Assembly: GCF_017348835.2 (NCBI RefSeq)
Contig: NZ_CP071375.1
Length of the DNA stretch: 64,000 nucleotides
Reading direction: 5' to 3' (one strand)
From: Escherichia coli
Lineage (GTDB): Bacteria; Pseudomonadota; Gammaproteobacteria; Enterobacterales; Enterobacteriaceae
Shown piece by piece: positions 8,117-49,075 of this stretch. Each line of letters opens with the position of its first letter. The first letter of the stretch is position 1. A model generated the notes under the pieces. The model was not told the origin of the DNA. It did not search any database and was given only the letters and a program-made list of their open reading frames with translations. Both the position numbers and the translations under genes were made by a program.

Positions 8117-8368
8117 ATGGCCAGAACGATGACGGTTGATCTCGGCGATGAGTTGCGTGAATTTATCGAGTCCTTAATTGAATCCGGCGACTATCGCACC
8201 CAAAGCGAAGTGATCCGTGAGTCACTGCGCTTACTTCGAGAAAAGCAAGCAGAGTCTCGCCTGCAAGCGTTACGTGACATGCTTGCAGAAGGGTTGAGTA
8301 GTGGTGAAGCTCAGCCGTGGGAAAAGGACGCGTTTTTACGGAAGGTGAAAGCAGGGATAAGGAAATAA
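8117..8368 (+). CDS. ParD-family (ribbon-helix-helix, COG3609-like) type II antitoxin (83 aa)
   Basis: AGGAGAG RBS at 8103-8109; translation carries the ParD-like motif GDYRTQSEVIRESLRLL; stop 1 nt before toxin start. Confidence 0.75.
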   Translation: MARTMTVDLGDELREFIESLIESGDYRTQSEVIRESLRLLREKQAESRLQALRDMLAEGLSSGEAQPWEKDAFLRKVKAGIRK

Positions 8369-8369
8369 T

Positions 8370-8666
8370 GTGCGTATTATTAAACTCATGCCAAAAGCCA
8401 ATGAGGATTTAGAAGGCATCTGGTATTACAGTTATCACCATTTCGGCGAACCACAAGCCGACAGATATGTGGAACATCTTTCAGACGTTCTCCAGATTCT
8501 GAGTAACAATAATATAGGTACGCCCAGACCTGAATTAGGCGAAGGTATTTTTGTTCTTCCTTTTGAACGCCACGTAATTTATTTCCTGCAATCACCAGGG
8601 GAAATTATCGTCATTCGTACCCTTAACCAAAACCAGGACGCCACCAGACATTTACACTGGAGCTAA
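8370..8666 (+). CDS. ParE/RelE-superfamily type II toxin (98 aa from GTG 8370; alternative ATG at 8388)
   Basis: Small protein with ParE-like conserved pattern (DL..I..Y...FG...A..Y......L..L...P..G.P...LG.G.....F.RHVIYF......I.VIR.L....D); tightly coupled to the upstream antitoxin gene. Confidence 0.72.
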   Translation: MRIIKLMPKANEDLEGIWYYSYHHFGEPQADRYVEHLSDVLQILSNNNIGTPRPELGEGIFVLPFERHVIYFLQSPGEIIVIRTLNQNQDATRHLHWS

Positions 8667-8768: not shown

Positions 8769-10130
8769 ATGTTTAAACCGGAACTCCTTTCCCCGGCGGG
8801 AACGCTGAAAAATATGCGTTACGCTTTCGCTTATGGCGCAGATGCTGTTTATGCGGGCCAGCCGCGTTACTCCCTGCGTGTGCGCAACAACGAATTCAAC
8901 CACGAAAACCTTCAGCTCGGCATCAATGAAGCCCACGCGCTGGGGAAAAAGTTTTATGTCGTGGTCAACATTGCACCGCACAACGCCAAGCTGAAAACCT
9001 TTATCCGTGACCTGAAACCGGTGGTGGAAATGGGGCCGGATGCGCTGATTATGTCCGATCCAGGGCTGATTATGCTGGTGCGTGAGCACTTCCCTGAAAT
9101 GCCGATCCACCTCTCGGTGCAGGCTAACGCCGTAAACTGGGCGACGGTGAAATTCTGGCAGCAAATGGGCCTGACCCGCGTGATCCTCTCTCGCGAGCTG
9201 TCGCTGGAAGAGATTGAAGAGATCCGTAATCAGGTGCCGGATATGGAGATCGAGATCTTCGTTCACGGCGCACTGTGCATGGCCTACTCCGGTCGCTGCC
9301 TGCTCTCTGGCTATATCAACAAGCGCGACCCGAACCAGGGTACCTGCACCAACGCCTGCCGCTGGGAGTACAACGTCCAGGAAGGGAAAGAAGATGAAGT
9401 TGGCAACATCGTACACAAGTACGAGCCGATTCCGGTGCAAAATGTTGAGCCGACGCTGGGTATCGGCGCGCCAACCGACAAAGTGTTTATGATCGAAGAG
9501 GCCCAGCGTCCGGGCGAGTATATGACCGCGTTTGAAGATGAGCACGGCACTTACATCATGAACTCGAAAGATCTGCGCGCCATCGCCCATGTAGAACGCC
9601 TTACCAAAATGGGCGTGCATTCGCTGAAAATCGAAGGTCGTACCAAATCTTTCTACTATTGCGCACGCACCGCACAGGTTTACCGCAAAGCTATCGATGA
9701 TGCCGCTGCGGGCAAACCGTTTGACACCAGCCTGCTGGAAACCCTGGAAGGTCTGGCGCATCGTGGCTATACCGAAGGTTTCCTGCGTCGTCATACTCAC
9801 GACGATTATCAGAACTACGAATACGGTTATTCAGTTTCTGACCGCCAGCAGTTTGTAGGTGAGTTTACCGGTGAGCGCAAGGGGGACCTCGCGGCGGTAG
9901 CGGTGAAAAATAAATTCTCCGTTGGCGACAGCCTTGAGCTGATGACGCCGCAAGGCAACATTAACTTTACCCTTGAGCACATGGAAAACGCCAAAGGTGA
10001 AGCGATGCCGGTCGCACCAGGCGATGGTTATACTGTGTGGCTCCCGGTCCCGCAGGATCTTGAGCTCAATTACGCTCTGCTGATGCGTAATTTCTCCGGG
10101 GAAACCACGCGTAACCCACACGGTAAGTGA
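8769..10130 (+). CDS. yegQ: Peptidase U32-family protein YegQ (453 aa)
   Basis: 453-aa ORF; U32 collagenase-like family sequence with conserved Cys cluster; synteny. Confidence 0.88.
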   Translation: MFKPELLSPAGTLKNMRYAFAYGADAVYAGQPRYSLRVRNNEFNHENLQLGINEAHALGKKFYVVVNIAPHNAKLKTFIRDLKPVVEMGPDALIMSDPGLIMLVREHFPEMPIHLSVQANAVNWATVKFWQQMGLTRVILSRELSLEEIEEIRNQVPDMEIEIFVHGALCMAYSGRCLLSGYINKRDPNQGTCTNACRWEYNVQEGKEDEVGNIVHKYEPIPVQNVEPTLGIGAPTDKVFMIEEAQRPGEYMTAFEDEHGTYIMNSKDLRAIAHVERLTKMGVHSLKIEGRTKSFYYCARTAQVYRKAIDDAAAGKPFDTSLLETLEGLAHRGYTEGFLRRHTHDDYQNYEYGYSVSDRQQFVGEFTGERKGDLAAVAVKNKFSVGDSLELMTPQGNINFTLEHMENAKGEAMPVAPGDGYTVWLPVPQDLELNYALLMRNFSGETTRNPHGK

Positions 10131-10214
10131 TTAATTTCGATTATTTTTCCCGGATGGAAAATTCTTAGAAACCGATCACATACAGCTGCATTTATTAAGG
10201 TTATCATCCGTTTC

Positions 10215-10301
10215 GCTGAAAAACATAACCCATAAAATGCTAGCTGTACCAGGAACCACCTCCTTAGCCTGTGTAATCTCCCTTACACGGGCTTATTTTT
10301 T
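10215..10301 (+). ncRNA. cyaR: CRP-dependent Hfq-binding sRNA CyaR (RyeE)
   Basis: Sequence GCTGAAAAACATAACCCATAAAATGCTAGCTGTACCAGGAACCACCTCCTTAGCC... ending in a hairpin and T-run matches my memory of CyaR, including the CCTCCTT anti-SD-like seed; located downstream of yegQ as in E. coli. Confidence 0.85.
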
Positions 10302-10459
10302 ATGCATAAGCCCTATCCCTGGTCACCGTCTTCCATTGACCACATCGATAGAATCTCCCTTCATAGCACGATGCCTTTCACGTAACGGCATCGTGCTCGC
10401 ACAGGTTCCGGCTAAGCACAACCAGAACGCGCATGTTTGACGCTTACCAAAAAATATTC

Positions 10460-10777
10460 TCACTCTCCACATTTGAATGTCAGACGAGCGACGCCATGTA
10501 ATCCTGCACCTTCTGTCTTCAGGTCAACTATCTGCATTTTTTTGCCCTGAGTAACACAGAAATGGGCTGCATCATTTTTTACTATATTTTCTGCACCAGA
10601 TATTCTACCCCTGGCTAAAGAAGCTTCGGCTTCGGTGTAGTATTGGTTATCGAGTTTACGCTGAATATTACTTTTATATGCAAGACCAAATTTACCGATA
10701 CTTGTCTCATCATTATGCACAGCACAACCAGACATAAGAAAAATACTAAATAATGATATAGCAACTATCTTTTTCAT
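10460..10777 (-). CDS. yegR: Lipoprotein-like uncharacterized protein YegR (105 aa)
   Basis: 105-aa ORF with signal peptide plus lipobox-like LMSGC; synteny. Confidence 0.8.
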   Translation of the reverse strand: MKKIVAISLFSIFLMSGCAVHNDETSIGKFGLAYKSNIQRKLDNQYYTEAEASLARGRISGAENIVKNDAAHFCVTQGKKMQIVDLKTEGAGLHGVARLTFKCGE

Positions 10778-11183
10778 CTCACCTTCCCCCCATTAAATAC
10801 CAACGACACGCCCTGGTGTTTAAATATAATAATGGCATGATTATTATAATTGAATAGGATTATAATAAATGTTCTGTACAACATTTCCTACATAAGTAGG
10901 AATTACGGACATGGAGGCCCTTCCGGGTAACTCTATGGGGGCTTTAATATATTATATTGAAGATGCCACTGTTTAGTTGAATATTAGGTATATGCTCTTT
11001 TTTGAAATTTATCGGTGGCTGCCGTTAGTATTCGCTGTCCCCATTGCAAGCTCCTGGTGGTAACCACTGAATCCTCCATACTTGAACTGACTATTTATCC
11101 TCCGACTTTCATCCTGTTCTGACTCCACCTTTTCTTTTCTGCTCTACACTATCTACAGACCAATCATAAAGGCACATACGATC

Positions 11184-12083
11184 ATGGCAGAATTTCCCGC
11201 CAGCTTACTGATTCTTAATGGCAAAAGTACTGACAATCTACCCTTGCGCGAAGCAATTATGCTGTTGCGTGAGGAAGGAATGACGATCCATGTGCGGGTC
11301 ACCTGGGAGAAAGGCGATGCCGCACGATATGTAGAGGAGGCCCGGAAGTTGGGCGTCGCAACGGTGATTGCCGGTGGTGGCGATGGCACCATTAATGAAG
11401 TTTCTACGGCGTTGATTCAGTGTGAGGGGGATGACATACCCGCGCTGGGAATTTTGCCATTAGGAACCGCCAATGATTTTGCCACCAGTGTAGGGATTCC
11501 TGAGGCACTGGATAAGGCGCTGAAACTGGCAATTGCCGGTAACGCCATTGCGATAGATATGGCGCAGGTCAACAAACAAACCTGTTTTATTAATATGGCG
11601 ACAGGCGGATTTGGGACGCGTATTACCACAGAAACGCCGGAAAAATTAAAAGCCGCGCTGGGTGGCGTCTCTTATATCATTCATGGCTTAATGCGCATGG
11701 ATACTCTGCAACCGGACCGTTGTGAAATCCACGGTGAAAACTTTCACTGGCAAGGTGACGCCCTGGTCATTGGTATTGGTAACGGGCGTCAGGCCGGTGG
11801 CGGTCAACAATTGTGCCCGAACGCGTTAATTAACGATGGCTTGCTGCAACTGCGCATTTTTACCGGCGATGAAATTCTTCCGGCTCTCGTATCAACCTTA
11901 AAATCTGACGAAGATAACCCGAATATTATCGAAGGCGCTTCGTCGTGGTTTGATATACAAGCCCCACACGAAATCACTTTTAATCTTGATGGCGAACCGT
12001 TGAGTGGGCAAAACTTCCATATTGAAATACTTCCGGCGGCGTTGCGTTGTCGATTACCACCAGATTGTCCATTATTGCGTTAA
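11184..12083 (+). CDS. yegS: Lipid kinase YegS (299 aa), DAGK-catalytic-domain family
   Basis: 299-aa ORF; GGDGT motif of the diacylglycerol kinase catalytic domain family. Confidence 0.88.
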
Positions 12084-12164: not shown

Positions 12165-12944
12165 CTACACCGTAATTAATTTTACCCGTGTCTTCTGCAA
12201 TGCCAGTTTATCCACCTCTGACACGGCATCATCGGTAATAATAATGTCAATTTTTTCGATTGGCAGTACCTGATTAAAACCGCGACGATTAAATTTCGAT
12301 GAATCGAGAACGGCAATCACTTTATTTGCGGCGGTGACCATCGCCCCGCTAATCGAATAACCTTCATTAAAGGTCGTAATACCATTAACCGCATCAATAC
12401 CATCAGCACCGACAAACATTAAATCGGCATTAATATCCTGCAATGAACGCTCGGCAATGGAACCATGCATCGAGCGCGTTTTATGGCGGACCGTGCCACC
12501 ACAGACGACCAGAGTAATGTCTTTATTTTCGGAAAGGGCAAACGCTGCCGGGAGACTGTTGGTAATCACCGTGATATTTTTGGCGGTCATTAATCCTTCG
12601 GCGATAAGCATTGTCGTACTTCCGCTGTCGAGAATAACGGTCATCCCTTCGTGGATCATTTTGACTGCCGCCTGCGCTATTCTGTTTTTTGGCGCGCTGG
12701 CGAGCTGAAATCGCTCTTTAAACCCGACTTCCTGGGTCTCGGTTTCACTATTACCGGACATTATTTTCGCCGCACCGCCATGAAAGCGCGTAACCACGCC
12801 TTTTTGTTCGAGAAAGCGCAAATCGGCACGGATTGTCGCTTCCGAGGCAGCAAATACTCCCGCCAGATCCTGAACAAGCACGGTTCCCTGTTCATTCACT
12901 AATTGGATGATCTTATTCCTTCGCTCGAATGAATTCATCGTCAT
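12165..12944 (-). CDS. gatR: DeoR-family galactitol operon repressor GatR, uninterrupted (259 aa)
   Basis: Continuous 259-aa ORF with N-terminal HTH and C-terminal DeoR sugar-binding domain; no IS sequence inside. Confidence 0.85.
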   Translation of the reverse strand: MTMNSFERRNKIIQLVNEQGTVLVQDLAGVFAASEATIRADLRFLEQKGVVTRFHGGAAKIMSGNSETETQEVGFKERFQLASAPKNRIAQAAVKMIHEGMTVILDSGSTTMLIAEGLMTAKNITVITNSLPAAFALSENKDITLVVCGGTVRHKTRSMHGSIAERSLQDINADLMFVGADGIDAVNGITTFNEGYSISGAMVTAANKVIAVLDSSKFNRRGFNQVLPIEKIDIIITDDAVSEVDKLALQKTRVKLITV

Positions 12945-18583: not shown

Positions 18584-18698
18584 GCCGGATGCAGTGTAAA
18601 CATACGTGGCAGCGCTGTGTAGGCATGATAAGACGCTTCAGCGTCGCATCAGGCATAGGTTGCCGGATGCAGCGTAAACGCCTTATCCGTCCTACGGG
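18584..18698. repeat. BIME: cluster of three REP elements
   Basis: GCCGGATGCAGTGTAAACATACGTGGC / GTAGGCATGATAAGACGCTTCAGCGTCGCATCAGGCAT / GCCGGATGCAGCGTAAACGCCTTATCCGTCCTACG are typical REP consensus variants in alternating orientation. Confidence 0.75.
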
Positions 18699-24039: not shown

Positions 24040-24870
24040 TTATTTAAGGCGTTTCTTTATCCCCTCAACGAATGCCTGCAACTCCTCCACCGTGCCATTA
24101 AATACATTAAAATCCACCGGACCATTGATGCCATCTACCTGTCCACGGTCGGAATGCTGCCAGAAGCGCCAGGCCATGCCGTCATTGTCCGGACGACGTT
24201 GATAGTAGTGCGCCACCCACCACGGATATTCATTGAAATAGCCCGCCAGATTGGTGTGATAAAAAACGGCTCCTGAGTAAATAATCGGCTTTTTTCCCGT
24301 ACTTTTTTCGACCATTTTTAGCCACTGACTTACCCGCTTGCGTAATTCTTTTGCCGATAATTTTCCCCGCTCTTCTACGTCCAGTACCGCAGGGAAATCG
24401 CCTTGTGAGAAATCCACCGTTTGCAGAAATAATCGCGCCTGAACCGGCGCTGCTACCGACGGGGAGAAATAATGATACGCCCCGCGCAGCAGGCCATTTT
24501 CGCGGCTTAGTTGCCAGTTACGCGAAAAATACGGGTCCACCAGCTTTTCGCCTTCCGTCGCCTTAATAAAAGCAAACTGTAAGCGGATACCGTTGTCGCG
24601 CATTTTTGCCACCCGCTGCCAGTCGATCCGCTCCTGCCAGCGCGAAACATCTATTCCGTGAATGGTGTAACTGGCAGGAATGCGAATAGCGAAAGATTTA
24701 ACCGGGCGATAACCGTAGAAGTGGATGTAGTCTTTAATCTGAATTGCTGTCGAATAGAAAAAATTCACCGTCTGACGCGGATAAATTGCAACGATGGAAA
24801 TTAGCCCAAGAGCGCATAATAGAGCGGTGAGTTTTTTTCGACTGGTAATGCTTAGCTGCATTGGTTTCAT
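24040..24870 (-). CDS. yegX: Glycoside hydrolase family 25 (lysozyme-like) protein YegX
   Basis: 276-aa ORF (true start may be a few codons downstream); GH25 muramidase-like sequence. Confidence 0.8.
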   Translation of the reverse strand: MKPMQLSITSRKKLTALLCALGLISIVAIYPRQTVNFFYSTAIQIKDYIHFYGYRPVKSFAIRIPASYTIHGIDVSRWQERIDWQRVAKMRDNGIRLQFAFIKATEGEKLVDPYFSRNWQLSRENGLLRGAYHYFSPSVAAPVQARLFLQTVDFSQGDFPAVLDVEERGKLSAKELRKRVSQWLKMVEKSTGKKPIIYSGAVFYHTNLAGYFNEYPWWVAHYYQRRPDNDGMAWRFWQHSDRGQVDGINGPVDFNVFNGTVEELQAFVEGIKKRLK

Positions 24871-26511: not shown

Positions 26512-26645
26512 AGTTTGCTCCTGCCATAACGTGAAGAAGCAATGACCTGGTGGTCCGTGACTTCCCTACGCTGGCATTATCCAGATCAGGTGATACGGGT
26601 ATTTCTCAGCCTTCACGCAGAAGGGCACCCCGAGTCGTTTGGTTG
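26512..26645 (-). promoter_or_regulatory. TPP (thi-box) riboswitch in the thiM 5' leader
   Basis: Minus-strand sequence CGACTCGGGGTGCCCTTCTGCGTGAAGGCTGAGAAATACCCGTATCACCTGATCTGGATAATGCCAGCGTAGGGAAGTC followed by the SD-sequestering platform and ATG matches the classical thiM aptamer. Confidence 0.9.
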
Positions 26646-48992: not shown

Positions 48993-49075
48993 GTTGGAAC
49001 ACGATGTTGCACAGGCTGTGGTGTTAGGCCTGAAAATAGTAAATAAAAGAACCTGCCTCACCAGCAGGTTTTTTT
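48993..49075 (+). ncRNA. orzO: Antitoxin sRNA (OrzO/OhsC-like) divergent from the toxin gene
   Basis: Short transcript bounded by the promoter and a rho-independent terminator (CCTGC-ctcacca-GCAGG + T7 at 49053-49075); its first 20 nt (48993-49012) repeat 48827-48846 within the toxin 5' UTR with 19/20 identity, giving antisense complementarity. Confidence 0.6.

Follow-up and report, generated by a model that had tools for sequence, protein, structure and literature searches.

A vacant P2 attachment site in the cyaR terminator of Escherichia coli and a probable fossil P2-type insertion, including yegR, beside it

Introduction

A phage attachment site without a phage raises the question of its past: it may never have been entered, it may have been vacated by a clean excision, or it may still border the remains of an older guest. 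This question is posed by a 64,000-nucleotide stretch of E. coli DNA (the window in what follows), in which the small RNA gene cyaR and the oppositely oriented yegR are separated by a very short interval (Table 1). A first-pass annotation had stated that K-12 carries a P2-like remnant with ogrK and yegZ between these two genes and that the 3' region of cyaR serves as an integration site of the P2 family, and it had described the interval as empty apart from a strong hairpin. The best explanation of the observations collected here, to which we assign a probability of about 0.8, combines a vacant attB at 10275-10301 with an older, fixed P2-type insertion that would extend from 10302 to about 11100.

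Table 1. Coordinates of the features of the cyaR-yegS region in the window.
Feature	Position	Strand	Remarks
yegQ/trhP	8769-10130	+	Upstream of cyaR
cyaR (CyaR/RyeE sRNA)	10213-10298	+	Rfam RF00112, 100.7 bits (threshold 47), full-length match
cyaR terminator hairpin	10266-10293, then T-run to 10301	+	Called by the terminator scan
Intact 27-bp P2 attachment core (attB locI), AATCTCCCTTACACGGGCTTATTTTTT	10275-10301	.	3' half of the cyaR terminator
~800-bp segment	10302-11102	.	Present in E. coli; right boundary blurred (11093-11107)
cyaR-yegR interval	10302-10459		Left end of the ~800-bp E. coli-specific segment
Putative decayed P2 Int P-arm binding site, CTGGTCACCGTCTTCCATTGACCACATCGA	10319-10348	.	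One arm repeat intact, the other degraded
Hairpin AGCACGATGCC-N11-GGCATCGTGCT	10365-10397		Perfect 11-bp stem, loop of 11 nt; lies 63 nt past the yegR stop (- strand)
yegR	10460-10777	-	105-aa ORF; annotated as yegR in matching genomes
AT-rich region upstream of yegR	10778-11019	.	38.5% GC over the whole stretch 10778-11102
Inverted repeat TTCCTAC-N4-GTAGGAA	10885-10902		7-bp arms; upstream of yegR
Putative int-side attP arm, decayed, ending in a degenerate second core (fossil attR)	11020-11096	.	Right edge of the segment
yegS	11184-12083	+	Beyond yegR

The P2 attachment core in the cyaR terminator

The short gap between cyaR and yegR is real; it amounts to 158 bp when the T-run to 10301 is assigned to cyaR and to 160-161 bp when it is measured from the Rfam or the K-12-equivalent end of the gene. 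In MG1655 the annotated order is trhP, cyaR, a 629-bp "cryptic prophage PR-X" (2167183-2167811, with ogrK and the pseudogene yegZ), yegR and yegS, so that K-12 does have a P2-like remnant at this place, as had been stated. The alignment with K-12, which the first-pass annotation had put forward as a check, was carried out by pairwise BLAST and returned two blocks that overlap within the cyaR terminator, with the K-12 insert lying between them. The K-12 interval is thus not the same short one, and, the two blocks meeting within the att core, the site in the window holds neither a prophage nor a remnant of the K-12 type.

The assignment of the cyaR 3' region to the P2 family is borne out by direct comparison with the phage. 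Window positions 10275-10302 and positions 24355-24382 of P2 (AF063097) are identical at 28 of 28 nucleotides, a range that spans the annotated 27-bp attP core (24356-24382). According to the terminator scan, the attachment core corresponds to the descending arm and the T-run of the cyaR terminator. The same core is found at both junctions of P2-like prophages elsewhere, as in strain EC6622 at attR (L003) and attL (L006) and in FRIK944, E686 and elppa10, and in the genomes with a split locus the overlap of the two matched pieces falls on the core (query positions 145-171). From the core to the right, the attR of EC6622 and the window have the same sequence. In the window only ~160 bp lie between cyaR and yegR, the PR-X insert of K-12 being absent.

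From the identity of its core with the attP of P2 it follows that window 10275-10301 is an intact, unoccupied primary P2 attachment site, and its recombination with attP by P2 Int, together with IHF, is predicted. The P2 integration site has been given as MG1655 position 2165238 (PMC3448106, Table 1). No difference separates the site in the window from P2 locI, given that the core is identical to that of the phage and that locus and orientation are those of the P2-like prophages in other E. coli. We take the vacant site to be the "locI" of the classical P2 literature, reportedly defined in E. coli C by Barreiro and Haggard-Ljungquist in 1992, in work that is also said to have detected a P2-like remnant in K-12. 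The MG1655 position 2165238, in turn, presumably belongs to an older version of the coordinates, in which it would fall just past cyaR. As for the further proposal that the site is "unoccupied or cleanly excised", the vacancy stands, while the two histories leave the same sequence behind, because excision by Int and Cox restores attB exactly.

As in other integration sites located at the 3' ends of sRNA and tRNA genes, here too the core is the terminator half of the gene, and attL regenerates a full cyaR.

Outside E. coli, a scan with one genome per species and the 28-nt cyaR terminator as query returned matches to Kluyvera and to E. coli-like loci only. Kluyvera species (e.g. K. intermedia, L012) share the exact cyaR terminator and P2 core and, since in K. 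intermedia the core is directly followed by a P2-like arm, a terminator and an ogr-like region, the site has been used outside Escherichia as well. A contig labelled as a Collinsella MAG (L010) also carries an E. coli-like cyaR with a P2 arm, which suggests contamination or mis-binning.

Occupancy of the site in E. coli genomes

The junction is uninterrupted in 4149 of 5426 complete E. coli genomes (76%), as judged from a 110-bp query (10236-10345) covered to at least 80% in one place, and a 670-bp query that joins pieces up to 835 bp apart covers 4562 of the 5426. Small inserts occur in about 413 genomes (~8%), the sampled ones being the K-12-type remnant, many of them in laboratory derivatives of K-12, and large inserts in about 864 (~16%), every sampled one of which is a P2-like prophage. 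The sampled occupants (EC6622, O157:H7 FRIK944, E686 and elppa10) share one orientation, with ogr and D beside cyaR and int, C and cox beside yegR.

With 76% of the junctions uninterrupted, the empty site is therefore the rule in E. coli. It is not an unusual condition but the majority state, and the vacancy of P2 locI is an ordinary and already known finding. Taken by itself the vacant site is of small import; its one message is that in this strain, in contrast to K-12, the integration site preferred by P2-like phages is available to them.

An E. coli-specific segment beginning at the core

The DNA to the right of the core has a different distribution. In an Escherichia lineage typified by strain E69, in Citrobacter koseri and in Salmonella, homology to the window breaks off with the last base of the core (10301) and is taken up again at 11094-11107 (E. 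albertii and E. fergusonii lie outside this outgroup sample). The segment thus delimited has a GC content of 40.4%, against 50.4% for the window. In strain E69, 7 bp separate the core from the region upstream of yegS, and the E69-type YegS protein is found on many contigs on which yegQ, cyaR and yegS are contiguous and yegR is absent. Over 9 kb this lineage, labelled Escherichia or E. coli by the submitters, shares 89-92% identity with the window. In C. koseri, too, yegQ, cyaR and yegS are contiguous and the segment is absent.

The same breakpoints could be explained by a segment ancestral to Escherichia and Citrobacter that was lost independently in the divergent Escherichia and in C. koseri and replaced in Salmonella, for example when Int and Cox excised it between its attL and an attR that still worked at the time. 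Site-specific excision would indeed be expected to leave several lineages with the same breakpoints at the edge of the core, and P2-like phages that could supply both proteins infect the yegR-less lineage, which can itself carry a P2-like prophage with int directly beside yegS (L018, L021). We nevertheless hold this history to be improbable, as high-identity YegR is present only in E. coli and Shigella and a single gain is more parsimonious than a series of independent losses. Moreover, even an ancestral segment would still be an att-bounded integrated element, so that the timing of its arrival would change and its nature would not.

Probable remnants of both attP arms

In P2 the core is followed, in this order, by the IHF site, the Int P-arm site, the ogr terminator and ogr. 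Beyond the end of the core, the window contains a stretch (10319-10348) that aligns locally with the P2 P-arm site CTGGTCACGTCCACACATTGACCACATCGA with a score of 38 (P2, L004 1561-1591; annotated Int P arm, 1563-1590). Among 2000 dinucleotide shuffles (mean 14.9, standard deviation 2.3, maximum 30) none reached this score, and no other of the 814 chunks of the window, counted by strand, matched it. Within this stretch, ATTGACCACATCGATA is invariant in 10 E. coli alleles. The interval is, consequently, not empty apart from its hairpin, as had been supposed: it contains what is probably a decayed P2 Int P-arm site and forms the left end of the segment. Since K-12 possesses a true P arm inside PR-X and, in addition, this copy to the right of PR-X, the copy predates PR-X. 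In the literature on cyaR and on the P2 att region that was covered, a scope that leaves aside the 1992 locI paper, no description of such arm fossils was found.

Two further resemblances in the interval were discarded. A repeat of the first 10 nt of the core (AATCTCCCTT) at 10352-10361 was considered as a scar and then dropped as allele-specific; it was given no weight because it reads AATCCTCCTT in K-12, in B2 and in most other alleles. The similarity of 10407-10455 to the right end of phage 186 (49 bp, 78%, E = 0.5) lies near cos and not att, and was treated as chance.

At the opposite end of the segment, 11020-11096 is colinear with the int-side arm of P2 (the Cox-site region) and with a genuine attR, and the alignment ends at the segment boundary. 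In a test specified beforehand, the last 60, 80, 100 or 140 bp before the shared anchor CGACTTTCATCCTG were globally aligned to the genuine attR (L018), which is taken from a prophage in the yegR-less Escherichia lineage. At most 1 of 3000 shuffles came up to the score observed in this anchored alignment, and none of ~3400 other sequence windows did so. Under strict local scoring the signal is weaker (29 of 2000 shuffles, p about 0.015), and the right-hand core is not significant when taken alone (581 of 2000 shuffles), the arm alignment running into a degenerate core. The arms at the two ends of the segment have the orientation of an integrated P2, with the P arm by cyaR and the int-side arm by yegS.

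These results bear on the plainest of the alternatives, namely that the attB is pristine and has never been modified, that the interval, yegR and the flanks are ancestral chromosome and that the likeness to P2 arms is due to chance. Such a history would agree with the lack of phage genes in the segment and with the weakness of the right-end core, but it would leave to coincidence a left arm that outscores all of its shuffles and all the other chunks, a right arm that stands out in a position-anchored test, a low GC content and the break of homology exactly at the core edge in three outgroups; we regard it as very improbable.

Searches for other phage material in the segment gave nothing comparable to the arms. 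BLAST of 10303-10459, of 10778-11110 and of the YegR protein against phage collections yielded only records that contain E. coli host flank (AY639599 and ON470606) and chance-level matches, and tblastn of P2-like Int and Ogr against the segment gave no match. Beyond the arms, then, these searches detected no DNA or protein similarity to phages in the segment, and no recognisable phage genes or fragments.

A parallel island in Salmonella

The same two breakpoints delimit a different insertion in Salmonella enterica CP019409.1 (L022 1150-3918), where a 2.8-kb island with 38.6% GC lies between cyaR and yegS and encodes an SseK/NleB-family effector, a CesT-like chaperone and a 111-aa ORF. Right after the core, the island starts with a stretch resembling the P2 IHF and P-arm region and with a hairpin (score 32 against 15.2 +/- 2.4; 0/2000). 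In the yegR-less Escherichia lineage and in C. koseri, where the site is pristine, the corresponding score remains at background (13-14). Breakpoints, low GC content, P-arm-like stretch and hairpin are thus shared with the yegR segment of E. coli, whereas the cargo is unrelated to yegR and no convincing right-end arm was found in the island (soft score 10). By analogy, the island can be regarded as an independent parallel that supports the model of a fossil insertion. A GTTTAT tandem repeat adjoins its 111-aa ORF.

The gene yegR

The product of yegR is a predicted lipoprotein of 105 aa that is essentially confined to E. coli and Shigella. More distant relatives of YegR, in Enterobacter sp. BIDMC 29 and in two metagenomic lineages, occur in contexts that are not P2-like, one of them being rich in IS elements, and these contexts give no evidence for yegR as a phage moron. 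A match of YegR to PHROG 21109 probably stems from host flank that was included in predicted prophages.

These relatives bear on another possible history, in which yegR reached the locus in a different way and the scars of one or more later P2 prophages, which decayed through deletion as PR-X is doing in K-12, account for the arm-like pieces. The non-phage contexts of the relatives, including the IS-rich one, would suit such separate histories, and K-12 demonstrates that a deletion can leave an attL arm and a truncated core behind. Against them, the arms lie at the extreme ends of a segment that is absent from the outgroups and have the orientation of a single prophage; furthermore, with the intact core as its point of entry, a later prophage would come to lie to the left of yegR, from where no int-side arm can arise on the right of the gene. 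Separate histories are accordingly unlikely.

Regarding its regulation, EvgA binds the yegR promoter according to a review (PMC8147483). The region upstream of yegR is AT-rich and contains a 7-bp inverted repeat (Table 1). In our reading this repeat resembles an EvgA box and, if it is one, a horizontally acquired gene would have been wired into the acid-resistance regulon.

Some alleles of the locus differ around yegR. A 12-bp direct repeat (AGCACAACCAGA, at 10415-10426 and 10721-10732) flanks most of the gene, and in FDAARGOS_1077 (L015) the DNA between the two copies is exactly lost, with deletion of most of yegR. Genomes of the B2 type (IHE3034, L002 about 1826-1995) have an extra ~170 bp of 30% GC between window positions 10450 and 10451, that is, immediately after the yegR stop codon and not at the att core; this insert has no obvious ORF and showed no phage similarity.

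Origin of the segment

The ~800-bp segment is probably a fossil P2-type insertion that has become fixed in E. coli. A P2-type integrase would recombine the identical 27-bp core of attP with the core in the cyaR terminator, and integration would rebuild cyaR at attL and place ogr and D by cyaR and int by yegR; PR-X of K-12 is a decayed occupant of this core. In the same manner, one old P2-type integration on the E. coli stem may have given rise to the DNA from 10302 to about 11100, comprising the interval, the hairpin, yegR and its promoter region, the interior of which would later have been lost or replaced, so that yegR was left and only the two attP arms survived in recognisable form. A single ancient integration is the simplest account of both arms and of yegR. 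As the insertion would lie to the right of the core, the attB of today would be the attL of the fossil, whose left core would owe its preservation to the cyaR terminator, of which it forms part, and whose right copy would have drifted. On the other side, no trace of a phage gene or protein (Int, Ogr) survives in the segment, yegR is devoid of relatives in real phage contexts, and the right core has decayed to a level that shuffled sequences often reach, with the strictly scored right arm at the modest significance given above.

A model for the formation of such a fossil is provided by PR-X, a decayed P2-like occupant of the same core that retains attL, the P arm and a truncated right-hand core. 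PR-X measures 629 bp, preserves ogr together with part of gene D and does not occur in the window; the older fossil, by contrast, would lie to the right of PR-X, is present in K-12 too, has no phage gene and is fixed across E. coli. In principle the cyaR site would not differ in this respect from other sites at sRNA and tRNA 3' ends, and what it would add is a layered use, by the fossil and subsequently by PR-X or by a full prophage.

Extended to its full scope, this reading, towards which we lean somewhat, holds that the primary P2 site is the attL of a fixed ~800-bp fossil prophage with yegR as its sole surviving content, and that the cyaR terminator has been a long-lived and reused gateway, the Salmonella effector island bearing the same P-arm scar. 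If this is true, P2-family elements would have delivered, via the cyaR terminator, genes that their hosts then kept, and a single attachment site within an sRNA terminator would link two lineage-specific islands, that of E. coli with yegR and that of Salmonella with the SseK-family effector. The orphan yegR would gain an origin as a horizontally acquired, att-bounded gene. In addition, "empty" att sites may carry layered scars of earlier integrations, a point of modest added value, and the locus could inform studies of sRNA genes as integration hotspots.

The hairpin between cyaR and yegR

The strong hairpin with an 11-bp stem that had been described at 10365-10397 is indeed present. It is unique in the window even when 2 mismatches are allowed, and none of 100 shuffles contained any match; furthermore, on either strand the fold of the cyaR-yegR interval exceeds those of its shuffles in stability (z about -3.5). 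The stem is not followed by a T-run on either strand, the sequence after it being CGCACAGG on the + strand and ATGAAGGG on the - strand, and the scan for intrinsic terminators calls only that of cyaR. Neither does the hairpin behave as a REP- or BIME-type element with many dispersed copies, as a single copy is found in the window and a 670-bp query has a median of 1 place per genome. Its left arm is nearly invariant across alleles. No covariation was seen across ten alleles, in which the two innermost pairs are weakened in B2 and one pair is broken in STECUZB006, both uncompensated.

The hairpin lies 16 nt beyond the P-arm fossil, as the ogr terminator of P2 lies 7 nt beyond the P arm; the two sequences are unrelated. 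It recurs in 78 IMG/VR viral contigs (L040-L117), all with an E. coli host context and with the core and/or the arm fossil just upstream. All 78 matches being host flank, they offer no independent phage context for the hairpin; its presence in the host context of predicted viral contigs indicates instead that prophage-boundary calls at this locus overrun attR into host DNA. In many of these contigs the hairpin is about 380-410 bp from the end of the locus. The observation could inform the programs that call prophage boundaries, which routinely take in about 400 bp of host flank here.

Most likely, the hairpin is a 3'-end structure of the yegR transcript, either a stabiliser or a weak terminator, and it possibly descends from a phage terminator. 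That it is a selected functional element in itself, be it an intrinsic terminator or a palindrome of the repeated extragenic or the protein-binding kind, seems doubtful to us. A perfect 11-bp stem is not expected by chance, and the stability of the interval and the constancy of the left arm point in the same direction; the structure, however, is single-copy, ends in no T-run and escapes the terminator scan, its stem has uncompensated changes in the B2 and STECUZB006 alleles, the E. coli alleles are too alike for their conservation to weigh much, and every viral-contig match is host flank.

Other features of the window

Between yegP and yegQ, the window contains a toxin-antitoxin pair of the parD/parE type (8117-8666; ParD_antitoxin E = 4e-19, ParE_toxin E = 2e-12). 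The yegP-yegQ gap is only 146 bp in K-12 and in strain elppa10, and EC6622 has both parD/parE-type genes. Among the divergent Escherichia loci, the call between yegP and yegQ is limited to a ParD-family gene, and in L017 even this one is not called. To the right of yegS, gatR, of the DeoR family, is an intact ORF of 259 aa (12165-12944), while the gatR of K-12 is split by IS3E. Further Rfam matches in the window are an OrzO-P antitoxin RNA at 49000-49075 (99.9 bits), naRNA4 at 18622-18692 (64.5 bits) and a TPP riboswitch at 26546-26642 (71.2 bits).
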